This document shows positions 10,545 to 33,856 of a stretch of DNA of 64,000 bases, in pieces (within the stretch, counting starts at the first letter, position 1; each line of letters starts with the position of its first letter). The notes under the pieces are model-generated. The model made no database searches. It had not been told where the DNA came from and saw nothing but the letters and a program-made list of their open reading frames with translations. A program made the translations under genes and the position numbers. The stretch comes from Pseudovirgaria hyperparasitica (taxonomy: Eukaryota). Where the stretch lies: NCBI GenBank assembly GCA_010093815.1, contig ML996575.1; one strand, written 5' to 3'.

Positions 10545-10703
10545 TATTATAAGTAGAAAGTAGACGTGATTGAGGTCATTGAATGTATTCTATAATTATG
10601 TATATAGCTAAGTTCTAGGGACAGAGTCGAAGCTATTTAACCGTTTAGACACTAGTCCCATTTAGGAAATAGTATCCCTTACTTAAAGTGCCTTCCGATA
10701 ATA
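10545..10703 (-). repeat. 3' LTR of Copia element A
   Basis: Direct repeat of 31011-31169, differing by transitions; followed by CTCCCCT (PPT on the minus strand). Confidence 0.92.
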
Positions 10704-13700
10704 CTCCCCTATACTAAGTATATATATATACTTAGTAATAATTAAATAAAGAAAAGCTTAAAAGAGTAATAGTAAGAGATAGTACTAAGAAGAATAAAGG
10801 AGAGATATAACTGCGAGAGAAACGACTCTACTATAAACTAATTATCGTCTTTATTTAATCTAGTAGTAGTAAGGGTAGTCCTTTTATTCCTATATTAGTA
10901 ACATTATTATAACTTATAATATACTATATAGATATAACTCTATTAGTAAATAATTTACGGACTACGTAATAATATATAGCTATATATTTAGACTATACCG
11001 TGATTTATTAGTTTTAGATAAGTACTATAGTAGCTTAATTATCTATAAGAAGATAAGGAACTAGAATATTATAACTTATAAAGATCTCTTTTATACCTAG
11101 TAGGGCCCACTATAAGTAACTTATAGCCTTTAAATAGGCTATATACTCTACTTCGTATATCGACTTAGTAATATATAATTACCTCTTACTATTCTAGGTA
11201 ACTAAGCTTCTATTTAATTAAAGGATATATATGGAGATAGACTTAGCGGTATTAGAATCTAAACTCTAAGAAGTATCTAAGAACATATTAATTTCTATTA
11301 CGCCTTTAGATTTCTTTAGTATAAGGTATTAGTTAATAGTATACTTAATATATTATAATATACTAAAGGCTATTTAAGTATATTACTCCGACGGATTCGT
11401 ATTAAAAGTAGTATATATTCCGACTATAAAGGTAAGATCTAGACGCGTACTAGTAACGAGATAATTAAGTAACCTAATTAGTTATATATATATAAGCTAG
11501 CGTTCTTAATTAATGATTTCTTCTAATCTTATTAGAAAGGTATTTATATCGACTAGAGTCTTTCTACTATTATAATCTATTATACTAAACCTTTTTAGAA
11601 TACGTTAAGAGTAAGCCTTTTAAGAAAGCTTAATTTAGCTTTCTCGAGATTAATTAATCTTAATACCTAATATTAAGCGCGCTTCTCTAAGATCTTTATA
11701 TTTTATACGTTCTATAACCTATTACTTAAAGTATTAAATATAAGGTTTCTCCTCTATAAGTAGTAGGTTATTAATATAGATAGTAATAATAATATATCTA
11801 ATAAAGACATATAGATTAAACTACGACTATTAGAATTTAAGAGATTAAAGGAGGTTACGTAAGGTATAAAACCATTTCTAACTAGATTATTTTAATCTAT
11901 AAATTACCTTTTAGAGCTTAAGAATCTTACCTAGTTTTTTAAAGCCTAGCGGGTATCGTATATAGATATTTTCGGATAGACTACTATTTAGATAGATAGT
12001 ATTAAAATCGATCTAGTAAATATACTTATCGAATTATATAGCCTATTAGAGTATAATACGAAGAGAATTATATTTAATAATAGGTGTAAAAGTTTTATTA
12101 TAATTAAGACCGTATTTCTACGTGAAGCCCTATATAACGAGACATGCCTTATAAACTTTAGTATTATCCGTAGTAGTCTTAATATTAAACACCTATCTAG
12201 AGCTAACTATTATAGGGACATTCGTAGTAAGTAGAGCTTCCTACTATAATTAATTAATCTTATAACTTCTTAGCTCCTTTTTAATAGCTATTTACTACTA
12301 ATACTAATTAGAAGAATTCCTAGCCTCTTTTAGGTTTAAAGGAACGTCTATATTTAAGGTAGTATTAACTAATAGAGTATAGATTATTTCCTTCTCTTCC
12401 GTATCTACTAAATTTATAGAGTTATTAAAATAAATTATACGCTTACGTTTCCTCCTAAAATAAGATATATTAGAAGGTAATCTTAATAGATATAGACTTT
12501 CGTGTAGTAGGTTATAGCTAGAGAAAGATTTAAATTTTAGTTAATTTACCCTAGGTGTAGTAGAAGGCGTCCTACTATAAGAAAGGGTAGATAATCTCCG
12601 TTAGGGTATCTTAGTAAGACTCGTCGTATCTTCTATATAGGGCTAGAGGTCCTATATATTTTAGATTACGACTAGTATATCGCGAGATACTTCTCTATTA
12701 TCCGACTCTTCTTCGGAGCTATCTCTTTCTATAATAATTAAGGAAAGAGATTACTACGGAAGTAGTCTCGGATTAAAGGGTACGAAAGTAATATCTTATA
12801 ACTCGATAATAACCTTATGGTTAGGAATATAGTACTTATAGATTTTATCTAATTTACTATAGCTAACTAGAATACCTTTCTCTAATCTATAGAGGAGCTT
12901 ACTACCTAGCTTTCGTGCTTCTTTCGGAATATATATATAGTAGATAACTCTAAATAGATATAAGTTTTAGATAGAAGGCTTCTTACCAAAGAGAGTATAA
13001 TATAGTATATCGACTATTAGGAGAGAGGCATATAGCACGATATTCTTAATAAACGTTATTATATAAATTACTTTAGCCTAGAATTTTAACTTAGTATTAG
13101 AAGAGAGAATGGATCTTACTAATATTTAAACTATACGGTTAAACCTTTCGACTATACCGTTCGACTCGTAAGAGTAGATAGGAGAGGTAATATATATAGT
13201 GCCCGTTTTACGAAAGAAGTCTTAAAGACTTTTAGTAATATATTTACCGCCTTAGTTAGATACGAATTCTTTAATATCTATATCGAACTACTTCTTAATA
13301 TATATAAAGAATTATATAATAACTTTAGGAGCTTCGGACTTATACTTTATAAAATAGACCCATGTAAAATAAGTTAATTCTTTAATAAAGGAGATATAGT
13401 ACTATAACCTATTTAGAGACTTATATGGTATTTTACTAGAGAGGTCGCTATAAACTCTACTAAACCATATCTTACATTACCTATTCGAGCTTAAAGGCTT
13501 CTTATACGTGGATTTAGATATACTATAACTCTTATAGTAGAAGTTACTTAGCCGCTTAGGGATTATATTAAAATCTTTATAAAGTCTTTTAGAATTTATA
13601 ACGTAATAATAACCTATAGTATAATAGAATTCTTTATATAATGCAAAGTATACTATAGTATATAATAGAAGCGGAGAAGATATATGGCGTAGGTAAATCT

Positions 13701-14608
13701 TCATAAGACCCTTATAGAATTTTACCTATATTACTTTAGATCTATAGTAGTCGTATAAGAAGAGGTTATTCCCTTTTACTCTTAAACTATACCCTTAATT
13801 CCTAATATATAACTAGGAGAAAAGGCGTATAGAATTTAGTTACTTACTAAAGAGGATATTAGTAAGTTTAACCTTTTTCATAGAACCGTCTAAGAGAATA
13901 TAATCTAGGAAAACTATTCTAATACCATTAATAGGAATCTTCTAATAATTTATAATTAATATATTACTAGAGGTACGCGGTTCTAGTAAGGTAAAGTCAT
14001 CTATATAACCCGATATATATCGTGATACACCTAAATTAAAGATCTAGTTATATATATCTACGGTTATATTAGAATTTGTAAGGAGTCTAATAGCTTTAAT
14101 ACCTAGGTCTAAAAATATTACTAAAATAAGAGGCTAACTTACTACTCGAGATCGCTTACCGTTTATATTAGCTATAGTCGTAAAGAAACTAACGACGTTA
14201 TTATTAGAGTTAGATTTAGAATCTAAAATTTTAATAACTTTAGCCTTATTAGCCTTTTATTACTTACTTAAGGAGTCCTTTTTAGAGGAAGACTTAGAAG
14301 ACTTCTTATCTAACTTATTATCTTCTTTAGAGGCTTTAAGTTTACGATAGTCTTAATACTTATAACCTTTAGAAGAAAAGCCGCGTTTCTTATACTATAT
14401 ATATTTAGTATTAGAGGTAGAGGTGGAGGTAGAGGCGGAGTTAGACTTCTTTAACTTAGAAGGTATAAGAATTATAGACGTAGGATAGTAGTCTAACAGG
14501 TCATAGAAGAATTCGGGAATATATTTAAAAGGGTAGTCTACTCTTCTAACGAGGTTAATTCCTAAAGAGTAGGAATTAAGTGTATACGGCCTACTTATAT
14601 AGTGGTCT

Positions 14609-14747
14609 TGTAAGGAGGCGGGCTCCACGCACTAACTAACTATACTAAAGGACCGAATCTTAAAGCTACTGCTTCAAGGGTGGAGTACACTGCTTATATA
14701 CGACTACTGCACACATGTATAATCAACTGGCAGGCACGTGCCTAACA
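14609..14747. mobile_element. 139-bp solo LTR or TRIM-like insertion inside the 3' LTR of element B
   Basis: Termini TGTAAGG...CCTAACA and TSD GGTCT (14604-14608, 14748-14752). Absent from the sister LTR at 29768-30007. Confidence 0.88.
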
Positions 14748-15827
14748 GGTCTCGCTTATTCTAGCTAGCTTAACCTAGGTCCACCTATTACAGACTATAC
14801 TAGACCATAGTAGTCTAGTTAAGTCTATCCTAGTATTAGCCCTAATAATATCCTTCTTCTTTTTATGCTTCGCCCTAAAGTACTTAGCTATATATAAATC
14901 CATAATTCTATAAGCATTATATTTATACGCGTATCTAATTAAATCCATATAATATTATCAATAGTCTTTATATTAGTAAACTTAAGCTCTAGTTTACTTT
15001 TATTTATATACGCGCTTATCCCTTACTTTATAGCTACTACCTTAGAGATAGCTCCGCGGGTTATATAACCGCTATATTAACTAAGCTTATATTTAGTTCT
15101 CTTATTCTAAATTTTCTTCTCTAGTATATCTACCTTACTCTTAAGGTAAGTTATTAATTTATATACTATCTCCTTTAGTTTAGATCCGTTTAGGTCTAGA
15201 GTAGTCTATTTTTATTAGAGCTGGTCCTATATAATCTATTTATGTTATTATAGTTACTAATTTAGCTTCTTTAATCGCCTTTAAGACTAAACGAGTATTC
15301 TACTCTTAGATCTCTAGCTAACGTATATATATAGATATCTAATACTAGTCCTATTCCTAAGCCTACCTCCTCCTCTTATAAGACTTACTCTAAAGAGATT
15401 ACCTCTACCCCGGCTATACCGGCTAAAAAATCTACTTATTATAGTAGTATAAAGGCGCGCTCTAAGTTAGAGAAGAAGGTAGCTAAGGCTACTACTACTA
15501 TTACTACTAACGTAGCCACTAGTCGCTCTAATCTAGGTAATCCTAGTACTAGTATTGCGGAAGAGGTGGCTATAAAGCCTATCTATACCTACTCGCGCCG
15601 CCTATCTACTCTACCTCCTTTAGAGGATAAAGAAGATCTTATTATAGATAATAATTAAGAGTTCACGCCTTTACCGCCTCGCTCTAAATACTATTTCTCT
15701 TTTCGGTCTAATATAGACCGACTTAGTTACTCTAGGTTCTTTTAGGACCTTAATATTTACTCTAAACCCAGCCCTAGTAATAATAAGGCCTAGGTCGCCG
15801 AAGATACTAAACGTAGTCGTGGTTTAC

Positions 15828-18800
15828 TATTAGGACTTAGCCTTAGGCAGGACCTAACCTACACGTACCTTAGCTAACAGGGTTAGGAGGTGACGTGAAG
15901 GGCGGTAAATAGTCACGTACTAGATAGATCGGCGTCCCTTTATATATATACTCTCGGATTCCTACTAAAAGGGTTCGGTAGTAATTCGTTCTATAATAGA
16001 ATACACCCTATTATTCTATCTAACTACACTACTATCTAATAACCCTATTCTTATATTCGAATTACTCCCTATATAGTACTATAGTTAAGATAGTCTAACT
16101 AGAACCGAGAAGGTCGACACGATCTACTATAGGGATAAGTAATACTACATTAAATAATAGGGATCCTCTATAATCGGTATTAATCCCGGCCGTTTCTAAC
16201 TAAGAAGTAGAAATGTTAGACCGAATTACGGAGCTTTCAGACGAAGAAATAGTAGATACGCCGAGTAACTTCTAATAATATAAAGCCGGATAACGAGTCG
16301 TGGCGGAGCCACGTAAGGTGTTATAATAAACCATCGCCGAACTTTAGGAATCCGTCGCGAATTAGGCTCGAGAGATTTAAACCCTTAAAGAATAGGTAGA
16401 ACGCGCGAAACTCCTCGTAAAGAGACGAGAACTTAAGGAGTCTCTTAAAGAACTACGCTAAACGATAGTAGGTGGACGACTTCCTATACTAATTTAGGCG
16501 GAATTAGTTTACCTACCATTAGAGTTACGATAATCCACCGTATACCCGGCCGCTTCGTTACCGATTTACTCTACTTCTTCTCTAGGTATACCGAAACCTA
16601 AAGACCCGACTATATTTATAGGGAAGAACTAAAAGGAGTGGAAAGACTAGAAGAGAGACTACGAAAAGTACTTCCTCGATAACCCTCTACTCTTTTCTAT
16701 TAAAGTATAATATATTTCGTTCGGAGAACGATACCTAGACTTATAATCCCGCGATTAATAGGATAGATAGAAGGAAGTATAGCTACTATCTACGATAACC
16801 TAGGAACATTTAGCTATATTTATACTAAACACCCTCGGAATGGATAGAGAACATAAAAGAAAGGCACTATCTAAGTTAAGAAGCGTGGTATAACGACCGA
16901 ACTAGACACCTACTTAACTACTATAATACCTCTAAAACCTATAGGATAATATCCCTACGCTATAGGAAAATATTCATATATTCTAGTTTCGCGAAGTACT
17001 ACTTCCGTTAATCCGCGAAAGACTAGAAATAGTATTATTAAGTTTTAACTATCTACACGAATTAGAGGAGAAAGCTAATAAACACTACCGCATCCTTAAG
17101 AAATGCGGCTCTCTAGGTAAAACCGACGAACCCTATACGGGTTAGAAACGAGGTCGATTAAATACGTTTAATTAAGAGTAACCTTACCGCGATTAGCGCT
17201 AGAAGAGCGTAAATCGGGGTAGAAACGCGTTAAGAGGACACTAAAATAATCGAGGCGGTGCTTCTTAACGCGGAAAAGGATAAGGTATAGGCTTAAATAT
17301 AACGCCTATCGTAAAATAGTAGGATTATAGCGTACTTCGTTACTATAAGTATAAAGAAATAGGATATATTTCGCCTAACTATAAGAATCTAAAAAAAGAA
17401 TAGGCTAGTACACGAGACCTAACCGTATCCTTAGCTAAATTATATATACTTAGGAGGAGCCGTAGCGCCTTCCGGCGAGTAAAGACCTAATATTACTAAA
17501 AGTATCGTTACCTATAGTAAATAGTAATAAAACTATATAGGCCCTTATAGACACTAGTATAGAAGATAACTATATTTTATCGATTCTCGTAAAGGAGTAT
17601 AGATTATTATACGATCTCGGTAAAGTTAGCCGAACTATTATAGTTAATAGATATAAAGTTAGAACTTTAGGTAAAGCTATAACGAATTACGAAGTTCATG
17701 ACTCGAAGATAATAAAATAGTAGATATCTAATAAATTCATCGTGGCTAATATTAGCTAATAGAATATGATTCTAGGGATGCCTTAGCTTAGACGCCTAAA
17801 CTCCATCCTTAATTTTTAGAAGGAGACATTAACGTTCCGATAATACCATGGTAAATTATACTAGTAGGTCGTAACTATTAGTAAGGAGGCATGGAACCTC
17901 GCTATACGGACCCGATCGTCGCTAATCTATCTTACGTCCTTATTAATCATTAATAAAGATAAGGACGATAGTAATAATTAGGGCGAAGACACGCTACCTA
18001 ACGTATATTCGTAGTATACGGATGTGTTTTCGGTAGGAGATGCGTTACTTCTCCCTAATCACGGGCTGTATAAGCTAAAGATCGAGCTCGAAGAGGGAGT
18101 AGACGTCCCTTATAGCCTACTTTACCTACTTTTAAGACTAGAACTCGAAGTTCTTTATAAATATATTAAAGAATACCTTAAAAGAGGCTAGATACGTCGT
18201 AGTATGTTATTAGCTAGCGTACCTATTCTCTTTGTAAAGAAGAAAGACGGAAGTTTACGTCTATACGTTAACTATTAGGTACTAAATACGGTAACTAAGA
18301 AGAATCGTTACCTATTACCGCTAGTTAGTGAATCTTTAGACTAATTAACGAAGGTAAAGTACTTTACGAAGCTAGATTTATAAGATATATATTACCGGCT
18401 TCGAATTCGTCGCGGAGATGAGTGGAAAACCGCATTTCGGACTAGATATAGTTATTTTAAGTATACTATTATGCCATTCGGGCTAATAAATGCGCTAGGA
18501 GCGTTTTAAGGATATATTAATACTATACTCGTAGGATTACTTAACGTAATTTACGTAGTTTATCTTAATAATATACTAATTTACTCCGATAGCATGTAGG
18601 ATTATAAAGAACACGTGAAATCGGTACTAAATCGTCTAAGGTAGTATAAACTCTACGTAAAATTATCTAAATGCGAGTTTCACTAATAAGAAGTTAGGTT
18701 TCTCGGCTTTATTATAACACATAGCGGCCTAAAAATGGAGCCGGAGCGTGTAAAGACCATCATGGAATAGCTAGAATCTACTACTATACGTTAAATTAGA

Positions 18801-21800
18801 ACATTCATAGGTTTCGTGAACTATTATCGTAAATTCATTATAGGCTTCTTATAAATTACGGCGCCGCTTAATAAACTCATAGAGAATGGCGGTAAAATCT
18901 CTATAGGTAGGCGAGCATAGCGTAAAGCTAAGTCGGTCGAGATATAGTTAACGCTAAAAGCGCGAGATGCGTTCCGATCATTAAAGAATTACTTTATAAC
19001 TACGCCGATTCTTAGGTATTTTAATCCCGAGAAGTATATTCGGGTCGAAACTAACGCGTTAGGATTTATAATTACTAGAATTATTAGTTAACCGTATAAA
19101 GATATAAAAGATAAGGTGTAATAGTACCCGGTCGCTTTCTTTTCCCGTAAAATAGCGGATATAGAGACGCGTTATAACACGCATGACTAGGAACTACTTA
19201 TAATCGTCAAGAGTTTTAAGTAATAGCGACATTATTTAGAAGGCTCCGTATATTAGATTAAATTATTATCGGATCACGTAAATCTATATTACTTTATATT
19301 AACTAAGGTCCTTAATCACCGATAAGTACGTTAGGCTAAGTAGATGTTAATATTTAACTTTAAAATCTTATATAAAGCTAGAAGAGAGAATAAAGCTAAT
19401 CCTCTATCGCGGTATAAAGATTATAAGAAATCGTTATAGAATGACGTAGATAGTCGGTGTAAGTTAGACTATACTATACTTTAGATACTATAAGACTAGT
19501 TATCTAATAGAATACTAGAAGCTAGAATACTTTCGGCGATTCTCCGCGGGAATTAGAGCGGGTATTAAGTAATCTAAATAAACGTCTAAGAAACTAAGAA
19601 AACCCTCAAAGACTTAATTAAATCTACCTAGAATTCCGATACATTAGTAAAGAAAGTTATAAGCATGAAAGGAAGCGCTATAGATCCGCCGTGGTTATTA
19701 AGGTAGAAACAACGATCGGACACGATCTACTTCTAAGGCCGACTCTACGTGCTAGAAGGCGGCTTATAAATTAATATTTTAAGGGAATAGCACGATTACG
19801 CGTTAGTAGGGTACTTTAGCGTTATAAGGACGGTCGATTTAATCCGAAGGACATACGACTAGCTAGGTCTTTATAAATATATAAAAGACTACGTAAAAAC
19901 GTATAACGTTTACTAGTATACGAAAGTATATAGACACTTGCCATATAGTAAATTAAGGCTATTACCTATGCTAAAGGAGGCATGGAAGGAATTATTAATG
20001 GATTTCATTATAGATCTACCCCTAAGTAAGTGTTCTAGATATATTTATAATAGTTTACTTATAGTTCTAGATAGATTTACGAAGATATTATACTACATCC
20101 CTATAAGGAAGATAATCTAAGCACCGGATCTTATAGATATACTACTCCGTGACGTAGTCCGGCTCTACGGTATACCGAACGGTATAGTTTCGGATAGAGG
20201 TCCATAGATAACGTCTAAATTTTAGAAGGATTTCTACTATACGCTAGGAATCAAGCGGAAACTTAGTACTATATTCTATCTATAAATAGATAGGTAGACG
20301 GAGTAGTAGAATTAGATAGTCGAGGCGTGTTTACGCGCATATTATAACTATAAGTAGGATAACTAGGTAAGGTTAGTCTATATTACGGAATTCGTATATA
20401 ATAATAGCCGACATGCGTTAACCTACGTAAGTCTATTCGAAGTAAACTTCGGTTAGAACCATAATACGTAGTTCTTAGGGACTTAGTTTAAAGTAGAACG
20501 ACCTAACATTAAAGTAATAGAAATTACTATAGAACTATTCTAAACGTAAAGAAGCGTTATAAAGTTACTATAAGATGCTATAAATTATAGCAAATTATAC
20601 TATAATAAGGGTAGAAAACCCATGATCTTTAATGTTAGGGATAAAGTTTTACTAAATAGTAAGAATATTCGTAGTATTAGGCTAAAGAAGAAGCTTAACT
20701 ATACGATGATAGGTCTATATAAGATTACTTATATAATTAATAACCAGGCGTACGAGTTATAACTCCCTCCTACGTTAAAGATATATAATATATTCTATAT
20801 TACGCTTCTTAAGCCATTTCATGCCTTATTATTACCGGATCGTTCCGAATAGATACTATATAAAGTAGTTACGTAAGAAGGTATAGATATCTATAAAGTT
20901 AAGTAGATACTTAGCTAGTAACACGCCGAAGATAGCACGTGGCTATATAAAATTCGTTAGAAAGGATATAATCCTAACGGAGATACTTGGGAACCTATAA
21001 TAAACATTAGTAAAGTAGCGATATTAGTATATAAGCAGCGATTAGTAAAGGAAGCCGCGGAATCGTAGAGAATTATACCAAAGTACGGTAATTCAATATT
21101 TTTTAGTATAGTTTAGCGCCGAGGACGGCCGCCTAAAAGGAAGAAGGTAAAAGAGATATAGATCTTTAAAATATTCTAAGGAATTAAGGAACTTCCTTAG
21201 AAAGTTCGAACTTAGAACTTTAAAAAATTTAACTAAAAAAGAGACTTAGAAAAATGATTTACTAAGAGAAATGGACATCGAAAATCGGTGCTAATCGGTA
21301 TAGATCGGTATAGATTACTAAAGAGATTAAAGAAGTTATTATTAAAGAAAGATAAAATTAAGAAAGCTAAAAGAAAATATAAAGATCTATATAGATCTAT
21401 ATAAACTTACACTAATCTATCTAGAAGAAGTAAGATTACTTTAAAATTAAAACCGAAAAACTAAAAACGCTAGATAAAAGAGATATATTAGTACCGATTA
21501 GTATAGATCTAAACTAATTAAGTCGGAGTAGGAGTAGAAGTACTAATTACCGCGATGGTTACATCTAATTTCTTCCGCTAGTTCTTATTTAGCATAGTAT
21601 AGAGCTTTATAATATAAGTCTCTAGCCTTTCGTTCCGACGCTGTAAATTCTATATAGCGCGCCTTATAGCTATAAACTCCTCTATAGAAACCTATAGAGC
21701 GGCGGGACCCGGGATAGAGAGGGACGGACCGGCGCGGGCACGCTAAGAATTATATAAATTAGCGAAAAGATTTAACGATCGGTATAGAACCATATACCTT

Positions 21801-23211
21801 TAGTATAGAAACTTCTAGATTAGAGCCATCTTCCCTAAATTTATAGCTCTTTAGCATGCGCGAGGAAGGAACCTTAGCCTTTTTACTAGAACCTTTTCTA
21901 GGAATTTTAATATCACTAGTATATAGAAAGAGGTCCGAAGTAGTAGAGATTTTAGCACTATTATAGAGATTAATATATATTAGTAAGAATCTATAATAAT
22001 TTAAGAAAAACGATATTATCTAGTAATCGCGGTAATAATAGCTATAGTAGATTCCGATAAATCCTTATAGATCTTATTAGAATCGTACTCCTAGGCGTAA
22101 CCCTTACCTTAGGTATATAGCTCGTAGAAAGCCTTCTCTAAGGCGTTGCGATCGGTAGTACTACGCTCCTTATTAGTAGGGGTCACTAGAGGCCTAGTAG
22201 TAATCTATACTAATATAAGTAAATCTACGTAAAGTTCTTTAAACTTACTTAAATACCTATAAGTAATAACGCTTCTTAGTTATATAAGTGCCGTATATTA
22301 TAGATTTAGTACTACCGTGAGTAATATACGACGGAAAGCGATAACCATAATAATATATAGCTAGATTATTAGAGCCCGGCCTAGGTCGGGGTAGATTAAT
22401 AGCTTTCGATATATCGGTAACGTATACGAGATAGGGATTATTCGAAGGCGCCTATTTCCGCGCCGATTACTTTAGAGCGTCGAGATTTCGGGAAACCATA
22501 TTATAATTATTATTAATTTATGCGGATTATTATAAATTATATTATTACTAGCTAAGGACGGCACGAAAATTAGTAAATTGCGTAAATCGCACTAAATTAT
22601 AGTAAATCTATATAAATCTATATCTATAAGGATCGGGTGATATACCTAATAATCTAAAAAACTCTATAAAGAGTTGAGAAGTTTTTTAAAGAAAGGAATA
22701 TTTCTAAGAAAAGATTTTAATATAGGTAGTACCCGGGCTTACCTAATTATATCACGTAATACGCTAGGCCTAATTAGGTAATCTCACCTATATAAGAAGT
22801 TAAGATGGATAAAATCTAGTTTATTAGGAAAACGCTTGTATAAATCTTAGATCGGCGAATATTAGTAAGTATCTAAGACGAAGCGTGGAGAACGACTAAG
22901 GTCTTATAAGACTTAGGATAGGGATATAGAGATAGGTAACGATCTAGATCGCTAAGGGTAGCTTCCTAGAGGGAAGGGATAATTATTAGGACTTAGCCTT
23001 AGGTAGGACCCGACCTATACGTACCTTAGCTAATAGGGTTAGGAGGTAACGTGAAGGGCGGTAAATAGTTACGTACTAGATAGATTAGCGTCCCTTTATA
23101 TATATACTCTCGGATTCCTACTAAAAGGGTTCGGTAGTAATTTATTCTATGATAGAATACACCCCATTGTTCTATCTAACTACACTACTATCCAATAACC
23201 CTATTCTTATA
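15828..23211 (+). mobile_element. Ty3/Gypsy chromovirus (element C), RIP-inactivated; 7.4 kb, inserted in the accessory gene of B
   Basis: 228-bp LTRs at 15828-16055 and 22984-23211; TSD TTTAC at 15823-15827 and 23212-23216; PPT GAGGGAAGGGA. Gag zinc knuckle at ~17341, RT '[12 protein letters not shown]' and 'VYLNNILIY', RNase H 'VETNA', integrase 'WKELLMDFIIDLP', chromodomain 'WLYKIR*KGYNPNGDTWEP'. Confidence 0.93.
21518..22499 (-). pseudogene. Antisense accessory gene of Gypsy C, about 4 exons; putative Cys6-type motif and C-terminal coiled coil
   Basis: ATG at 22499: MVSRNLDALK*SARK*APSNNPYLVY...PSY...IIYGTYITKKRYYL* then an intron. Later exons are separated by gt...ctaat...tag introns. 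The last exon reads 'EEFIAIRRAI*NLQRRNERLETY'. Confidence 0.65.
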
Positions 23212-26200
23212 TTTACGCTATAGAAAAACGGCGAACTACGGTTTAATATACTTTAAGTATATTAAGGCTTACGCCACCGGCTCTAAATATCTCTTCCGCT
23301 CTAACTCTAGTATTAGCTACTACTCTACTAACTACGACGGGCCTATACACCTAATCTTTAAGCTCCCTACCCGCTACTACCGCTATACCGTTCTTAGTAA
23401 AGTTTATCTTTAGATAAGTCTATTAGGCTATTTTAGTCTAGGGTAATCTAAAGTCGTCTATACTAATACGTTTTTAGATTTCTATTTATATATAAGATAT
23501 ATATAACGATCTTTACGTCCGCGAGACTCTCGGTAGTTCTAGCGGTTACCTAGCTTCTATACGTAGGGAGTTTAGGGAGCGCTATAAGCTCTTTCTAGAG
23601 GTTATTAAAGTATAAGTTTAGAAACCATTAATTATTATTAACCTTAGCTTATAATTTTTAGTTACCGCGAGATTTCTAGCGCTTAGGCTACCTATTCTAG
23701 GGAGTCGGTTTTAGCTACTAAGGCCGTAGAAGAGATTTATACTATTCCTTCCTACCCGCCTTATACTACTAACGGGTCTTATAAGAGATCTTCTAGTTCT
23801 CCTTCTAAGTTACCTCGTAAGAGGGTATATATTCTATTCTAGATTATTCTAGACCGCGTTAGCTAACTTTAGGTCTAGTCGCTCCGCTCTAGCGCTTAGT
23901 CATCGTCTTACTAGGCTCTAACTAAGCGCGTGGTTACTCTAGAGGATAAGGTCTCTAACCTCCGTCGCTCTATTACTTAGTTAGTTTATTTACTACGCTC
24001 TAAGAGTAATAATAAGATAGAGGAGTAGCTCTATGGCTCTATTTACTAGGGTTTCTATATAGTGTGTGTTAGCTCTATCTACCTAGTTTCTATCCGTTTT
24101 AGTCCTTTTTAGACTATTTAGATATCTATCTACTAGTTTTCTAGTAATTTAATTCTTAACTTAATAATATTATGTACGTTCTTATTTATTCTATAACTAT
24201 TAAATTTTAGGTTCTAATTTCCTTTAAGTTACTTAAGTATAGGTATTATATATAAATTAGTTTATCTCTCTAAATTATATTAGAGTACCCGAACTAGTAG
24301 CCTAGTAGTTATTAGTTCGGGTACTCTAACCTTTTATATTATATATTACGAGTTTAATTCCGTAGTAGGGTACCTTTTTAGTTTCTTAGTCCTATATTCT
24401 TCTTGTGTATAATAGTCTATATTAGTCTATTCTAGACTTCTCTATATTATTCTATTATAATATATCGCGTCGCGTGCCTATAATGGTTATTTACGTTTTC
24501 TTCGCGTTTAGTAACCGTATATCGCTTAAATTATGGGGCTGCCTTATAGAGTTTTCCTAGTATATGTTTAGGATTCGTGATTCGATACTTCGTTCTCTAT
24601 AGTATCCTTCTTCTTTTTATAATAGCCCCGACGGCGCTAGGTTTACGGTAGTAACGTATTATTCTATAACCTCTATTTATATATAGCTATCGCGGTACTT
24701 AAGATATATACCATAGGTTCCTAGGTGTTCTTATCCTCGGTATAGTTCTTCTAACGGATTTAATACTTTTAGATACCGTTCTCGTCGAGTCTATATTTAA
24801 TAATATAGTCTACTTCGTACACGTCTAGTCTATCTTAGAGTATAATAGAGTGTAATTACACGTTCGTGCGTTTATATATATTAGATCGAAACCTTTTAAG
24901 TAATAAGACGTGGAATACGTTATAGACTTTTATATTATTTTCTAGGTTAAGCTCGTAGACTCTTATACCGATATAACGTTTAATTCGGAAGAGACTAGCT
25001 ATTTTATAATCGAGCTTTTTATTTACTCGCGACGTTTATATATTACGGATATTAAGAAGGACTTCGTCTCCCTTCTCGTACGCTTAATCTTTAACTAATC
25101 TATTATAGTACTTTATATATAACTTATTCGCTTACTAGATTATTACGCGATAGTTACGTATGGTTTTAAAGATTTTAATTACTAGTTCCTACGTGTAGAC
25201 GTTAATATCTATCGTTCGGTCGAACTAGACCGTATAAGGTTTAAAACCTATCCTTAGACTACGTCCTAGGTTCGCCTAGAAGGGCGTGACACCTATTATA
25301 CTATAACGACTATTATTATACGCGAATTCTACTATGCTTAGTAGAGAGGCCTAGTTATCTTATTCGAAATTATAGAATGCACAAAGGTAGGCCTCGAGCG
25401 TTTAGTTCTATTACTCTATCTAACCATCTATTTATAGATAGAATACTATTAATATGTTTCTATTCATACCGGCTATTTCGTAGAATAATATCTAGAATTT
25501 AGACGTAAATATACTCCCTCGGTCCGTAACGATCCTTTTTAGTATACTATAGACCTTAATAATCTTATTCTAGAATACTTATACTAGTTCTTTTAATATA
25601 ATCGTCTTCTATATAGGGACGTACCTAGATATCTTTATAAGTCTATCTACGATAATAAGAATTAAATTATAACTTATCCTAAGTATCTCGCTTAGAGGTA
25701 AGTTAACTATAAAATCTATAGTAATATCTTCCTATATAAAGAGGGGGACTAGTAGAGGCTATAAGTTCCTATATAGCTTATGCCTAGGTACCTTTATTCT
25801 TTAATAAATCGGATAAGTAGCTATCTATTCTTCGACGTACTTAGGTATATCTTTCTAAAAATAGTACTAATAAATCGAGCTTAGGGTGCGTATATACCCG
25901 AAATATTCTACTAGGTTAGCGTTATGGTATTAGCTAACTACGGTAAATTATACGTTACCCGTCGGTATATAGTACTTTCTATTATAGTAGAGTAAGCCGT
26001 CCACGAAGGTCTACTTATAGTCTACTTTAGTCCGTAATAATCTATCTTACTATATTTTATATAACTTTAAAACTATTAGGTCTATCTTTTATAGATCCAC
26101 GATTAACTAGGCGAGGTCTACTTAATATATATACCGGGTACTATCGCCCTCCCTAATAGCGCCGATAAATAGCTCGCTAGGGACTTCGGTACCGCGTCTT

Positions 26201-29200
26201 TAGTTACCGGCTTCGGTCTTATAAATTTAATTACTAGTATTAGTATTAGTATCTCGCTAATTATCGGATAACTTATTATCTAACCTTATCCTCAAGAGTT
26301 AGGCCTATAGCTACTCTAGGACCCTATAGCTACTATAATCCTAGGCGCCTTCTTTATAGTTAGGTCTTCTTAATATTCTATTAGCTAGGTTTATACTTCT
26401 AGGTTAATAGTAGATTATAAAGTAGAAATTTATAAGCTACTTAGCCTATTAAACCTATTAACGATTTAAAACCGTTATACTTATAAACCCCTTTAAGTTA
26501 TAGTAATTAGTTAGTAACTTAACGTTATATATAGTACCTTTAAGATAATATCGCTACTACTTAAATAACTCTACTATTACTAGTAGCTCTTAGTTATAAA
26601 TAGTATATCTAGTCTCGACGTCGGCTATCTTACGCGAGAAGAACGTAACTAGATACTATTAGACCTTTTTAGACTCTATTAGTCTAGGCTAGAAGAGTAT
26701 ACCCGAGATTATAAATCCTAATATATTAGTTTTAACGTGAATAGGTTTAGTTAGATCGAAGTACACTAGTAATAGAGCGGTTATAAATACTTCTTTAATC
26801 TTCTTAAAGGATATTCTTTTAACCTTAGTTAATTTAATAGATTATAATTTAATATTACGCTATTTCTATCTACCACGGACTATAATAGACGAGTTAGTAG
26901 TAGTAGTACGCGTATTAAGTAGTGCGGCTAAACAGGAGAAGTATTTAATAAATTTTCGGTAGTAGTTAGCGAAGCTAATAAAGACACGTATATCTCGAAC
27001 GGATTTTAGTTTAGGCTAGTCTATAATAGTAGTAACTCTATCTCTCTCTATGGTTATACCTTAATTAGTAATAACGAAGCTAAGAAAGTTAATATAGTTC
27101 TAATGGAACTCGTATTTAGATAGCTTAATATATAGCTTATACTTTTCTAGTCTATCTAGGACTATACGTACGTACTAGATATACTCATCCTCGTTATCTA
27201 AGAAGATAAGGATATTATCTAGGTATACGATATATATCGTGTTAAGTAGATCTACTAGCGCGTTATTAATATATACTTAGAAGGTACCTAGCGCGTTAGT
27301 TAGTCTAAAAGGGACTACGGTATACTTAAAGTATCTATAACGGGTCCTAAAAGCCGTTTTCTATTCGTCGCCTTCCTTAATACGAAGGCGATAGTAGGCG
27401 TTATATAGATTAAGCTTAGTAAAGATCTTTACGCGTCCTAGTCTATTAATAGACTTAGAGATAAGAGGTAGTAGGTAACGATTCTTTCGTGTAATATTAT
27501 TTAGACTATAGTAGTTAATATATAGACGGAGGCTTCTATCCTTCTTCTTTATAAAGAGAATTAGAGCTCCGGCTAGGGATATACTAGGCCTAATCTATTC
27601 TCGCGTAAGGTTCTTTTCGATATATTCTTAAAGGGCTTATAACTTAGGTTCTAAAAGAGGGTAGATAGATCTATATAGAGGTTACTAGCCGTCTTCGAGA
27701 TTAATAGTAACGTCGGTAGATTAGTATTAAGGTAGTTCGGAGGAATCAATCGCTAACGCAATATATTAGTATATTTTATACTAATATAGTAGGTTTTCAT
27801 CTACTTTAATACTAAGCTCGCTATTTTACGTAAGTAAGAGTATATAGATAGTAGAGATCGCCTTCTCGTAATCTTTCTAGAATTATTCGTCGTTAATAAG
27901 CTATACTAGTTCCTATTAAGGTAGGTTTATACGCTAGCTAGCTATCTTCTTAAGGAAGTCTAGTTTTAGATTATATTTCTTAAGCTATAGTATACCTAGA
28001 ATTATATTAAAGGGACTATCTACCACGATAAAGGTTAAGTAGTAGAGTTTCTATTTCCCTCCGCTATTCTAGATACTATATTTAATAGTATAGATACTAT
28101 ATAACTTAATAGGACTATCGATACTATAGAATATAGCACCTATTAGAGCTTAGATATCGGCGTTAAGTTCTCGTGCTCGTTAGGTCGATATAACGTTAGT
28201 AGCCAACCTACTATTAAGTATTATAGTCTAATATTATCCACGAGGGACCTCGATAGGTCTAGTCTATAGTTTAATATACTATTTAGCGGATTACTCTTCT
28301 ATTATAGTCGCGCCTATAAGTTACGAGGGTTTCTTATAGACTATTAGTTTTTTATATTCTATACTAGATAGTTAGGCGCGATATATCCTAGCTACTAGCA
28401 CTTATAGTATATAACTAGTTAGTTAGTTATATTAGTACTCGGTAGCTTTCCCGAACGGTACTTAGATACTATATAGTCTATTCTACTATAGGTATAGTAA
28501 GTAACTTTAGATCGTTTATACGAGTCGGTCCTTATATCTTAATATATTAATTAGTAGGGAGATCTATAATACGATCCGCGTGGTTTTAAATTTAAGGCGT
28601 GGTAGTAGCCTTATAACGTCCCGCGAGATCTATTACTAAATTAGTTTTAGTTAGACGATTTTACGTTAGATTAGATTATTAGGGATAGTCGTATACTAGC
28701 GCGGCGTTAATTATTTATTATATACTAGTATCGCTCCGTAAGGTTTATAAGAGCTTAGAGGTCTATAGGGATTATTATTATAAGGTTAAGACGGTCCTTT
28801 ATATTTAGGGCGAGGGACCGTTTAAAGTTATCGTACTATTAAATTATATAATCTTCTTCGGCTTCTCTCTAGAGGGGCCGAAGGTATTTAAGGAGTTATA
28901 ATAGTAACTAATTATCTCGTTATCGAGTCTTAAAGATATAGCCCTAGGCCTAGTCGCGTTATTCAGCCCTATTACTAAAATATTAGAGAAGAAATTCGGT
29001 AAACGTGTCCTAGTTATAGGTATCCTTAGGATGTTCGATTTAGTATACTATCTAACGTTCTAAAGGCGTCGGGTTAAGGTAGTTCTAGGCGAATCTAATT
29101 TTATTACTATCGTTCGTGAATAGATAGAAGAATCGGCTATATTAGTAAGTCTATATATAGAAACTCTTTCTACTTTTACTATTAAAGTAAGGTAGTTTCT

Positions 29201-31010
29201 TAGGTTAGGGTAATTAGAATAGTAGTAGACTAGGATAGATTATTTTAGTTAGTATAGGTCTATATAAATATAGATTAGTTATTACTAGAACTAAAGCGCG
29301 TAATATAGCTTTAAGTCTTATAGTACGTTCTTAAGCTTCGTTAAGTTTACATAGTTATTACTTAAGTTAAACCTATTATTACCTCTCTTCGTATAGTCTA
29401 GTATATATATTATTATAAGGTATAGTTAACGTTAGGCGATTCTAACGGATTAACTCGTTAATATTAATAAGGTCTAGCCTCGTGTTAAGGTTAGGTCTAG
29501 TATAGTTCGAACTAGACTAAGATGGAGTATAATAGACTCTATCCTTATATTCTATAATATCTTCTATAGTTATACGGAATATCGTGCGAGTTATTAGTAC
29601 GATAGTCTATAAGGTATAGTTATTAGTAGGGGTAGTTATAGGTAGACTATTCTCCTCGTTTAGGTTAGGAGAAGGTCTACTATAAGAGATGGTGCTACGA
29701 GTATTATAACGAGTAGTTAGAGCTATTTCTATAAACTACCGTCGTGCTATATAAAGAGGAATTAAAATATAAGGATTATAGACGTAGGATAGTAGTCTAA
29801 TAGGTCATAGAAGGATTTAGGAATATATTTAAAAGGGTAGTCTACTCTTCTAATAAGGTTAATTTCTAAAGAGTAGGAATTAAGTATATACGGCCTACTT
29901 ATATAGTGGTCTCGCTTATTCTAGCTGGCTTAACCTAGGTCCACCTGTCACGGACCGTACTAGACCATAGTGGTCTAGTTAAGTCCATCCTAGTATTAGC
30001 CCTAATAGAAGGCTAACCGGACTTACCCTTATAGCTTACCTTATAGCTAGTAGTATTAGATTTAATACTATATTTCTTAGCTAGATTAAGTATCTTTAGC
30101 TCGATATCTTAAAATCGTAATATATCTCGAGTTAATAAATTATTAATAATATAGTCTATGGTATTAGGCAATAAGATAAGGAAGAATAAGCCCTTAACCT
30201 CTTTAGACTTAAAGATTAGGCGTATTACTTTTATAACTATATAAGATAAAGTAGTATATCTTTTTACTATTCGCATCTAGGTATAATAGAAATTATTAAT
30301 ATATTCATAGATATCTTCTCCGTCTTTATAGCGGAGGTTAGCGAGTAATCTAAATAGATATATTAAAGAATTACCTATATCACGGTCGAAACGTAATAAT
30401 AGGTAACTCTATATAGCTACTACTATATTATAGGAAGTAAGACCTATAATAAGATCTTAATATATTAATAAGAGTAATATAATTATTACCTTATTATCCT
30501 TTATATCCTAATCTATTACATCTATATATAAATCTATAACTCTAGTACTAAAGGGTCTAATAACTCTACTAGAGACTATTATCTATAATTATATATATTT
30601 AAATACGATTATCTAAGCTAATCTCTACTTAGGGAAATTTTCTTCTCTTAAAGATAGCTTAGATAGAGAGGATAGGTCGAGTTTAAAGTTAATAGATATA
30701 TTTATTATTAATAAGTTCCTTAAGTTCCTTCTCTTTTCTTTATATAGGACTAATAGTTTCTTATTCTAACTCTTTCTATTTATTATATATTCGTAAGGAA
30801 GGTAGTAAAGGTAAAAGAGATAGAAGGATAGTATAGAGGACGATATAGAGGCCGAGAGTTAATAAGGTAGTAGAATTAAAGTAAAACTTTAATAGGATTA
30901 ATAAGATAACTAAGTTTTAGAGAAGGGACTTACTTTTATTAAAATATAATAGTTTTCATTAATAAAGAGGTATTTTAAGGCTTTTATAGTAAAACGCCGG
31001 GCTTATAACC

Positions 31011-31169
31011 TATTATAAGTAGAAAGTAGACATAATTAAGGTTATTAAATATATTCTATAATTATATATATAGCTAAGTTCTAGGGACAGAGTCGAAGCT
31101 ATTTAACCGTTTAGACACTAGTCCCGTTTGGGAAACAGTGTCCCTCACTCAAAGTGCCTTCCGACAACA
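31011..31169 (-). repeat. 5' LTR of Copia element A
   Basis: Ends ...CCGACAACA followed by TSD CCGGT; PBS adjacent at about 30999-31010. Confidence 0.92.
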
Positions 31170-33856
31170 CCGGTGTGGGTTGTTCAGAGACAAAGAAGAG
31201 TCGGACCGGAATTGCCTTGGCGTGATGACGGATCTCAGCCACTGCGCAGATATCATCAGGTGTCCCATGAGGAACATCATCTTGGCAACGTCTGCGACGG
31301 GACGAAATCGTTTACGATTCCTATTGGTCGCTGAAGTGCCAAGTCTCTATATTCTATGGTTTCACTAAGATCTACTCTATTCCAAAAGCCGATGTCTGTC
31401 CCTACTTTACTACTACCTGACTTTCGTGCTCTGAGTGTCTGGAAGTCTCTCTAAAATTCTTCTTGGTGACTCGGCTTCGCGATCTTGACATCTAAAGAGA
31501 CGCCCATGACCCTCATAGTCGATCGCTGCTGAAAGCTCGCATGTTCGCGAATCCTAGATGGTAGCGGGCGAAATCGGACTAATAAAGATTCAACCGACGT
31601 GAACCGAAGAATGAAAGACGATCCACAGGTTTATTGTTAGATCAGTGATGGTGGTATCACTGTGTTGATGGCCAAGTTGCTGATGAAAGCGAGGACTAAT
31701 AGCTATCTTGGTGGATACACGTTGATCGTGCGTAAGTTGCTTGATGCCAGTGAGAAATGAGACCTGTCGGGTATTGCGACATCGACCTGGCCGAACAATC
31801 TTCCTGTCTAGTAGCTGTTCGCCGAAAACACGCAAAGCCACTAATGGGTGGAGGATTCGTCGAAGGCACACCGCGTGTTCGACGGCACCTGCAGAGGGAA
31901 TTCCAGCCCTTGAACAGTTGTAGGTGGCACGTTGTTCGTGCTTCCCGTAGACAAATCCCGTTACTACCGGACAAAGTGCCTAGGAAGCCAAATTTGACCT
32001 AGTCAGCGAAAGTGATTGTTGGCCTGTAGGAACAGGTGTTTCCATTGAGTTAAACGCCAATACCCCCATTATGAAGTCTCTTGCTTGCCATCCTCGGTGA
32101 CGATGGGATCATCGAAAACTAATGCCATTATTTCACTGCGCACAGAGACCACATGCCTTTATACATACGAATAGGTGATCTTGATCATCAAGATCATCTA
32201 ATGACAACCAAATCTCGAGATGATATCATCTTTGACTGTCACTCGTATTTGCGATATGCTCATGCTCGAATGTTGTTTGTAAAGGAGGTAGAGACACTCC
32301 GGCTGAGACAGCCATAGAGGCGAGACAAATCATCATCATATGTTGAGATATCACTATCCTCCGTGAATCGACATGCTAATCAATTCGTGGTACTTCGCCA
32401 AGGCAGCATGTTTGTCGACCTAGAACATACATGTATTACATCCAGAGTTACTTAACACGTGCTATTCTCATTATGCTAGCGCTCCTAATGATACTCGCAG
32501 TTGCTAGTCTGTATGACATCTTTAAGTTATGACTAAGCTCCAGGCAAATAGATGTATGTTCTCCACTGCGATGCGTTGGCTTTGATAGTGTCATATAATG
32601 ATTGAGGCCAGGCTGAAGCCTTGAAGTCAGCGTCATTAGACTAGTGTGACTGATTTACGTAAATTTCTTGAGTTCGATGCGGGAGAGCAGATATTTGCCC
32701 GATGACGGCCGCCAAAGAGAGTGAAGTGCAACAATAGTATGTTGGGGGCCTCGAAGTACGCCAGAGTAACATAAGCTTATTACCATACTTGCTGGAGGGG
32801 AGGAGACAGCAGTGCCTTTTGCGGACTATGGAGTCGTGGAATTCTGCTGGCAAAATTAGCAGTGAGCCCTTCACTTGCAGCGATCGTGATTGAGAAAAGT
32901 AAGTGTTGTTTGACAAGAGTGCGGAATAGTGGGAATTGTAGCTAGGATTTGTCTAGTGAAGTACTCACAAGGTGACAAATAGAAGAGAAAGATCTGAGAT
33001 GTGAGCGAGGCAACGGTGCTTCATCCAGACTAGCGTGTTCTATACCCTATTCGGCATGTAACAGGGTTTATAGTGGAGACGTGGTCGGCGTATGCTTTTG
33101 TTTAGACACAAAAAAACAGTGGAAACTTGTCTGGTGTCCTCTGATAGGGTTTCAGGGATTGAAACTGAATATTCGCACTCGATATAAGTTTGGAAAGTGG
33201 GGCATCTTTCGCCTTCGGGCACTTGGATAATTTGAAACACCACAGAGAAGATTAGCATTGCCCCTGCACAAGGATGAAAAGCTTAGTCGAAGAGATTAGC
33301 CCTTTTTTTACCAATTTTTGGCGTAGGTTCGATTCCACGCATATCTGCCCTTTTGCTACCCCTTCTGAACGGCCGTTTGTTTACGCGGCCACAGCGTCTA
33401 TCTTTGCTTTCTTTTACATGTATCAGCCTTCAAGCTTCTCAAGTGGCCATATGTAGATTCGCGCAAAGAATTAGTTGTACTATAGATAATAGCGTCGCTC
33501 ATGTGTAGTTAGGACAATCTTGATAGTGTTTCGAAAAACTTTTTTCATATGTTTAAGTAAAAACCGTTCTCGTTACAACATTTACAAGCAGCATTATACA
33601 TCCAATACCACCTTCTTTTCAAAAAGCTTGTAGGCATCCCGTATATCCGTCTCGGCCTACGTAGGGAAGAGCCAAAACTACTTGGTACCTCATTATACAC
33701 CGTAATCGAGACGTATTGTTATATAGAAGACACTAATAGTATCTTCGCCTAAAACATCAGTCGTAGAGGTTCATATGCAATATCTAAATCAAATTCAGCA
33801 AAGCAGACACTTAAACGCAAGCATCAAATGTACGAACCAGACTTGAAAGAGACTGC

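Follow-up and report, generated by a model that had tools for sequence, protein, structure and literature searches.

Genes lying antisense between pol and the 3' long terminal repeat (LTR) are known from several LTR retrotransposons, and their function is still open. In the plant elements Grande1, RIRE2, Retand and PvRetro13, such genes are kept in most copies and are suspected to encode DNA-binding regulators, with domains of their own such as TRP28 (PF04195) in Retand (accessible excerpts of PMC7264820 and PMC11963269). For fungi, only brtn of Boty, a chromodomain-bearing Gypsy element of Botrytis and Sclerotinia, is cited as an antisense gene in this position (accessible excerpts of PMC7264820, PMC8365987 and PMC4227169). 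Here, we describe a comparable locus in a 64,000-nucleotide stretch of Pseudovirgaria hyperparasitica (contig ML996575.1 of assembly GCA_010093815.1; hereafter the window), in which a Ty3/Gypsy chromovirus damaged by repeat-induced point mutation (RIP), element C (15828-23211, plus strand), carries extra DNA between pol and its 3' LTR. With a probability of roughly 0.75-0.8, the interval 21518-22499 on the minus strand represents a RIP-destroyed copy of a real, spliced antisense accessory gene of this chromovirus lineage. The locus resembles Boty, with which it was compared by description, in combining a fungal chromodomain Gypsy element with an antisense gene between pol and the 3' LTR, and it resembles the plant elements in place and orientation, whereas those belong to plant lineages and encode other domains. 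An initial annotation, made from the letters of the window, had recognized no characterized family in this gene, a statement that requires qualification given the antisense extra genes already known in plant elements and in Boty (PMC7264820, PMC8365987, as excerpted). The terms "antisense" and "zinc" are absent from the accessible part of a survey of fungal elements (PMC3248453), as are "intron" and "zinc" from that of the study of plant antisense open reading frames (aORFs; PMC11963269). Our literature search, which did not extend to the brtn paper, found no report in which an antisense gene of fungal LTR elements is connected with a zinc cluster.

Element C lies in an AT-rich block of 20.6 kb (10545-31170; GC 0.33) between flanks of normal composition. 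Within the block, TpA/ApT is 1.66 and (CpA+TpG)/(ApC+GpT) is 0.18, compared with 0.81-0.83 and 1.16-1.23 in the flanks, indicating that the block bears the signature of RIP. The element combines the features of a Ty3/Gypsy chromovirus, namely an LTR pair, a target-site duplication, the expected order of pol domains and a C-terminal chromodomain. Its two 228-bp LTRs (15828-16055 and 22984-23211, both on the plus strand) are 93% identical and are bordered by the duplication TTTAC, read directly from the sequence at 15823-15827 and 23212-23216. The pol region (18234-21161, plus strand; 6.4 stops per 100 codons) encodes reverse transcriptase, RNase H, integrase, SH3_Tf2-1 and a chromodomain. When stops were read as X, the plus frame starting at 15801 matched RVT_1 (E=7e-24) plus five further Pfam families, two of the matches being RNase H families. 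The domains follow the order RVT_1, RT_RNaseH, Integrase_H2C2, rve, SH3_Tf2-1 and Chromo, with the Chromo and rve scores falling under the Pfam cut-offs in this mutated copy. The chromodomain (about 20892-21026, plus strand, by Pfam) is followed by an AT-hook, RGRPPKR (21120-21140, plus strand), which forms the C-terminal end of pol and also closes the consensus of 13 unmutated pol relatives, and the frame terminates after it at the stop 21159-21161. A polypurine tract, AGAGGGAAGGGA, was read at 22968-22979 on the plus strand. The extra DNA that had been reported in front of this tract is present, measuring 1.8 kb if counted from the stop of pol (21161) and 1.9 kb if counted from the chromodomain.

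The structure and antisense pattern described in the initial annotation are confirmed. Between the pol stop at 21161 and the tract at 22968, on the strand opposite gag-pol, where an aORF is expected by definition, the four-exon reading from an ATG at 22499 to a TAA ending at 21518 was reproduced, giving 813 nt with an initial Met, 270 codons and the terminal TAA (all features on the minus strand). Exon 1 (22257-22499) has three stops, including its final codon, and contains a stop-free region of 57 codons (22263-22433) with Tyr in place of Cys, arranged as Y-x2-Y, a long loop and Y-x2-Y-x6-Y; the previously noted series Y-x2-Y...Y-x10-Y-x2-Y-x6-Y was found here, directly followed by GTATTT. 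This hexamer is the donor of intron 1 (22205-22256; 52 nt, phase 0), which begins two codons past the last cluster position. Exon 2 (22020-22204), with two internal stops, is followed by intron 2 (21958-22019; 62 nt, phase 2), which shows a branch-like TACTAAT, a TAG acceptor and ATAATA at the donor position. Exon 3 (21798-21957) has no internal stop and falls within an open stretch of 86 codons (21759-22019), and intron 3 (21743-21797; 55 nt, phase 0) has the donor GTATAT and a TAG acceptor. Exon 4 (21518-21742) comprises 74 codons plus the TAA at 21520-21518, with three internal stops and a helical-looking C-terminus. The model contains eight internal stops (2 TAA, 6 TAG), 20 Tyr codons and no Cys codon. 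Given that all Cys codons of the cluster would have become Tyr and that eight stops interrupt the frame, the window copy is dead.

The segment is not confined to this copy; such confinement was an outcome that, according to the initial annotation, would refute its proposal. DNA contigs of run X1, which is possibly the window's own sample, span 20000-23250 with none of the 30 bins left empty and with a very high summed depth (13469 pieces), and these pieces are 80-100% alike to the window with differences consisting of transitions only. The segment belongs to a high-copy family. In addition, pieces of both ends of the extra region are present in run X3, which derives from a second organism. Among the 40 variant sites listed out of 180, none falls on the Tyr codons of the cluster.

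Unmutated relatives were used to place this pattern in context. An alignment of the 13 pol relatives led to 79 metagenome loci with related pol (cited below by their L numbers), of which 42 pol copies, all reaching the end of pol and followed by at least 900 nt, formed the counted set. Many relatives possess an open antisense frame with a cysteine cluster just past pol, often succeeded by basic, helical and acidic stretches, and their proteins are short (about 100-400 residues). Within 2.6 kb past pol, a stop-free CxxC...CxxC-x5-8-C occurs antisense in 12 of the 42 copies and in the sense direction in none; a placement of homologs antisense downstream of Gypsy pol was what the initial annotation had proposed to look for. 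The full canonical Zn2Cys6 spacing is found antisense in 4/42 and sense in 0/42, and the half motif C-x2-C-x6-C in 13/42 and 2/42, respectively, although two of the 13 antisense matches (L068 and L072) look like chance. Because some copies are close kin (L034, L045 and L067), these counts overstate the independent cases, and the distinct lineages number about ten. The second triad, CxxC-x5-7-C, is kept in all relatives with a cluster, whether canonical or long-looped. For L034 and L045, dN/dS is 0.22 over 193 antisense codons (0.10 over 876 codons of pol), showing purifying selection on the antisense gene in this one pair.

These observations bear on the proposal that the segment is a piece of a host gene, captured once and carried passively without function. 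Zn2Cys6 genes are very numerous in fungal genomes, which makes such a capture conceivable, and the introns are present as they would be in a host gene. However, the gene occurs in several deep branches of the pol tree at a constant place and orientation, it is under selective constraint in the pair just mentioned, and it is kept in a high-copy family. Moreover, none of the large regulatory-domain Pfam families of host Zn2Cys6 factors was found on the 17 relatives' ORFs scanned. We regard a passive host fragment as very improbable.

A different objection is that the 1.8 kb is a non-coding spacer or untranslated region and that the gene is a chance reading of TA-rich RIP DNA, where Tyr codons abound, frames with few stops are frequent and the choice of splice sites is free. 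Tyr accounts for 8-9% of the codons in each frame of the RIP block, and a loose cysteine-like pattern with Y counted as C is consequently expected about 0.5 times in the interval. Frames antisense to pol descend to 2 stops per 100 codons and are as open as the candidate, so that stop density does not discriminate, and the plus-strand pol frame is also fairly open in the interval (4-9 stops per 100 codons). The initial annotation had taken the exclusive use of TAA and TAG as the expected product of RIP. The observation itself is correct, but the argument does not hold because TGA is rare throughout the element (20 TGA vs 381 TAA and 314 TAG on the plus strand). A stricter signature derived from four intact relatives, consisting of CxxC, then CxxC-x5-7-C, two codons and GT, behaves differently from the loose pattern. 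With Y counted as C, it has one site in the six frames of the 20.6-kb RIP block, the candidate site, and no other turns up among the 127,996 codon positions that all six frames of the window comprise. The signature arises in 1.6% of 2000 dinucleotide shuffles of the interval (p about 0.016). Together with the comparisons of gene architecture and of a second element given below, this leaves a chance reading quite unlikely in our estimation.

The preferred interpretation of a destroyed antisense gene is linked to the relatives through pol and through gene architecture. A FastTree phylogeny of pol with 44 rows places L002 plus L004 as the sister group of element C (local support 99), and both of these nearest relatives carry the gene at the same place, with long-loop cysteine clusters in their antisense first exons, as do L012 and L009 in the neighbouring branch. 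In L002, L004, L005 and L012, a short phase-0 intron of 44-49 nt begins exactly two codons past the last cluster Cys, with donors GTAGGT, GTAAGT, GTGAGC or GTGAGT and branch sites of the CTGAC- or CTAAG-type; the window shows the same layout with Tyr for Cys and an intron of 52 nt. L004 encodes an uninterrupted ORF of 296 codons in four exons; its three introns, each with the donor GTAAGT, measure 49, 72 and 58 nt and have phases 0, 2 and 0. The window model likewise has four exons, with introns of 52, 62 and 55 nt in the same phases. In composition, the window reading has 20 Tyr, 0 Cys and 8 stops, compared with 7 Tyr, 10 Cys and 15 Gln plus Trp in L004. Even between L002 and L004, the antisense genes lack significant similarity. 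Homology of the window copy is therefore argued from architecture and not from alignment, namely from place, strand, cluster pattern, intron position and intron phases. The antisense gene evolves very fast. Thus, the initial proposal of an antisense, intron-bearing Cys-cluster gene with a helical C-terminus is supported by comparison with the relatives, while the TAA and TAG stops carry no information on it.

A second site in the window is consistent with this interpretation. Element B, a minus-strand Gypsy element that hosts the insertion of element C, contains at the equivalent place, post-pol and antisense (23249-23413, plus strand), a Y-x2-Y, a loop and a Y-x2-Y-x6-Y-L-stop, followed by ATAAGT, a TACTAAT branch and a TAG acceptor, which delimit a 64-nt, phase-0 intron-like stretch (23414-23477). 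Under a relaxed donor rule, no sites other than those of elements C and B occur in any frame of the 20.6 kb when all six are read, and the two lie within the post-pol antisense positions, which make up 10% of all strand positions. Element C is inserted 33 nt upstream of the element B site, which probably represents another dead gene of this kind.

Several results weigh against the presence of such a gene in element C. The query used for the word-index, phmmer and metagenome searches was the stop-masked minus frame 22499-21498, from which exons 2 and 4, lying in another frame, are absent. With it, none of 607 word-index candidates scored, phmmer against 1.84 billion representatives returned 0 hits, and 540 pattern matches in a metagenome scan yielded 0 confirmed relatives. 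Searches of the extra region by tblastn and blastn against the 79 loci found nothing, and Pfam gave no match on the six frames of the interval even at E up to 10, nor any on six frames beyond pol at E up to 0.01. A second copy of the extra region within the window was not found by DNA or translated search. In RIP-aware alignment, the exons of L002 and L004 scored against the window within the noise of shuffled queries, and the ORFs of 12 relatives gave nothing above noise; these results refer to the averaged version of the method, as a version choosing the best possible ancestor for each codon proved too permissive and was dropped. Hidden Markov models (HMMs) built from 14 and 18 related first exons missed the window site. 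A likeness seen by eye between the last exons of L004 and the window was not upheld by RIP-aware alignment and is not claimed. As a control for RIP damage, the mutated pol still recovers relatives at E=1e-242 with 35-40% identity, including those of Curvularia clavata and Parastagonospora nodorum. Furthermore, intron 2 has no GT donor in this copy, the window branch in the pol tree, built with FastTree alone, is a long one of unusual composition, and a model of codon usage with pol as its training set chose no frame of the interval, although this model is weak (about 0.03-0.05 bits per codon in cross-validation) and did not choose gag either. The failure of every sequence search to find a homologue and the missing donor favour a chance reading, whereas the signature, the match to L004 in exon number and intron phases, the gene carried by the nearest pol relatives and the site in element B speak for a decayed gene.

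The nature of the encoded protein was assessed mainly from the relatives. The initial annotation had likened the cluster to Zn2Cys6 with a long first loop. The Zn(II)2Cys6 family (PF00172) is defined by the spacing CX2CX6CX5-12CX2CX6-8C and a Pfam gathering cut-off of 21 bits, and with Y read as C the window cluster departs from this spacing, having Y-x2-Y, a loop of at least 22 residues and Y-x2-Y-x6-Y, and the interval has no Pfam match. Long loops also characterize L002, L004 and L012, and loops of 14-22 residues in the window lineage contrast with 6 in the canonical form, and no match to the canonical spacing with Y counted as C occurs in the RIP block. The canonical spacing is found in L034, L045, L071 and L073, which are more distant from element C than L002, L004 and L012, and L044 is also listed among the canonical relatives. 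Seven aligned canonical relatives share six Cys columns with C-x2-C-x6-C occurring twice, and these proteins resemble Gal4-type factors in having six cysteines in two CxxC-x6-C triads, with a putative linker and pairing helix behind them. They differ from them in being short proteins borne by a retrotransposon and in scoring under the Pfam cut-off, while the long loops of the window lineage break the defining spacing.

A profile of the seven canonical relatives placed GAL4 first among PDB sequences (E=0.034), with AlcR, PPR1, RSC3, Pho7 and LEU3 also among the 22 entries listed at E up to 10. A phmmer search of PDB sequences with L071 found no hit. For L071, AlphaFold2 yielded a model with a mean pLDDT of 68, rising to about 82 over the cluster, that includes a helix at 62-119. 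Compared with PDB by Foldseek, this model had 22 matches at E up to 10, of which 21 are Zn2Cys6 DNA-binding domains; Pho7 ranks best (probability 0.96, rmsd 2.1 A over 36 columns), and Put3, Ppr1, Gal4, Hap1, Leu3 and AlcR are also among the best matches. The fold comparison suggested by the initial annotation points to a Zn2Cys6-like predicted fold for the relative L071, whereas the model of L004 exon 1 was unusable (pLDDT 47). Residues 22-125 of L071 were predicted to pair with themselves with a score of 0.53, compared with 0.00 for the best of three controls, at contact agreement of at least 80% between runs and a partner pLDDT of at least 72. In calibration, the mark was reached by 21/30 one-chain pairs and 0/23 single chains of microbes, and by 17/29 pairs and 0/30 single chains of eukaryotes. 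The prediction supports self-pairing of L071, although this pass may stem from the predictor's familiarity with similar dimers that have already been solved. The predicted pairing runs antiparallel along the helix, with paired residue numbers summing to about 169, unlike Gal4, which pairs in parallel. Collectively, these models point to a Gal4-type cluster in the canonical relatives.

In one branch of the relatives, a Lys-rich segment, a helical portion and a long, acidic tail of Glu and Asp follow the canonical cluster. Antisense genes with such tails lie on the minus strand at L037:4625-5766, L057:6188-6874, L034:3186-3803 and L044:3077-4282. Acidic tails of this kind are seen in transcriptional activators. 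In a protein atlas, the best-scoring clusters for L034 are commonest in Basidiomycota, and L002 obtained no usable hit.

Not all of this evidence favours a Gal4-type protein in the window lineage, and the gene may be real while its long-loop Cys module is something other than a Zn2Cys6 DNA-binding domain, serving instead in RNA or chromatin binding, anti-silencing or copy-number control. In line with this are the departure from canonical spacing in L002, L004, L012 and the window, the exons that cannot be aligned even between sister elements, the low confidence of the L004 exon-1 model, the outcome for L002 in the protein atlas, and the Pfam results, since neither the window frames nor the 17 relatives' ORFs gave a match above the cut-off, Zn_clus reaching only 14.6 bits in L045 and 13.5 bits in L073. 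The Foldseek E-values of L071 are likewise weak (0.2 to 3). However, the canonical spacing is present at this locus in other lineages, one of them with a Zn2Cys6-like predicted fold, the second triad is conserved throughout, and several relatives possess the activator-like acidic tails, which makes this alternative rather unlikely. Because the spacing in its lineage departs from the canonical one and the exon-1 model of L004 is unusable, the window gene is not assigned to the Zn2Cys6 family; the window-lineage protein most likely works like a member of it. Whether its product is a zinc-cluster DNA-binding dimer appears evenly balanced on the models available, and regulation of the element's own LTR by this product is a tentative suggestion on the unlikely side.

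Under the interpretation of a decayed antisense gene, intact elements of this lineage would carry the gene on the strand opposite gag-pol, in the space from pol to the 3' LTR, and transcribe it from a promoter of its own in the spacer or the 3' LTR. Its three short introns would survive retrotransposition because they do not read as introns in the sense genomic RNA; that antisense introns escape loss in retroelement replication is well established. The protein, of about 270-300 residues, would possess an N-terminal six-cysteine zinc cluster followed by a helical region pairing two copies, and its likeliest job would be that of a Gal4-kind DNA-binding dimer regulating transcription, most plausibly of its own LTR. 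Homology of this particular copy, transcription, splicing, zinc binding, DNA binding and the target are all points that we infer. In a broader scenario, a spliced antisense gene of old origin and very fast evolution would be carried by chromodomain Gypsy elements throughout Ascomycota and Basidiomycota and would encode a small Gal4-type Zn2Cys6 dimer acting on their own LTR, in the manner of the antisense or accessory regulators of complex retroviruses, a gene of which the window would hold two RIP-killed copies, in elements C and B; we consider this scenario possible but short of even odds.

The comparison suggests that a branch of fungal chromoviruses keeps a recognizable type of gene at this locus, combining a six-cysteine cluster with a putative pairing helix, and that several lineages there have the canonical Gal4 spacing and an acidic tail. 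The role of antisense extra genes would thereby become directly testable, and such elements may bring their own transcription factor. Should the broader scenario hold, there may have been exchange between mobile elements and part of the fungus-specific Zn2Cys6 repertoire. The gene would also offer a fungal parallel to retrovirus-encoded regulators. In the human T-cell leukaemia virus HTLV-1, the antisense gene HBZ lies close to the 3' LTR, has a spliced form and codes for a small bZIP transcription factor that pairs through a coiled coil. As HBZ belongs to a vertebrate retrovirus and is a bZIP protein, not a zinc cluster, the parallel is one of analogy only; the antisense genes of HTLV are also mentioned in the accessible part of PMC11963269. 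Methodologically, repeats ruined by RIP may be readable through comparison of their gene architecture with that of unmutated metagenomic relatives.

When four intact first exons were used to search a protein collection, 15 proteins without assigned names were recovered. Most are RIP-type variants of the L012-type exon with cluster Cys changed to Tyr, and one is such a variant of the L002 type; these natural Cys-to-Tyr copies speak for the reading of the window segment as a decayed gene. Proteins P0122-P0135 form a graded natural series of RIP-type versions of the L012-type first exon, in which cluster Cys have become Tyr in some members and Asp and Gly have become Asn and Ser, and this series could be used for calibrating how RIP rewrites proteins. 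A different kind of antisense passenger is seen in L072, where an ORF antisense to a partial pol (L072:12013-12423, plus strand) matches DUF6532 in Pfam at E=8e-4 and 19.8 bits (cut-off 24).

The RIP block contains three LTR pairs, one nested inside another. The outer pair lies at 10545-10704 and 31011-31170, the middle pair, belonging to element B, at about 14464-14847 and 29768-30007, and the inner element is element C. At the DNA level, the pol of element B (about 25350-28400, minus strand) shares only 66-70% identity with that of element C. Antisense within the post-pol region of element B, a plus-strand stretch at 15335-15658 runs for 107 codons without a stop amid heavy RIP, and no match to it was found. 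In run X4, a 159-nt contig (depth 3.7) joins 20408 to 22986 with seven other letters between them, skipping 2577 nt that comprise the end of integrase, the chromodomain and the entire accessory region; this contig could stem from a deleted derivative or be a chimera. In addition, runs X4 and X5 contain a 2840-nt contig at a depth of about 2600 that ends in 130 nt of LTR-like sequence (window 22988-23117). This abundant record comes from another sample with the same species label, and its LTR-like end has C or G at many sites where the window has T or A, apparently representing an unmutated LTR-like piece.

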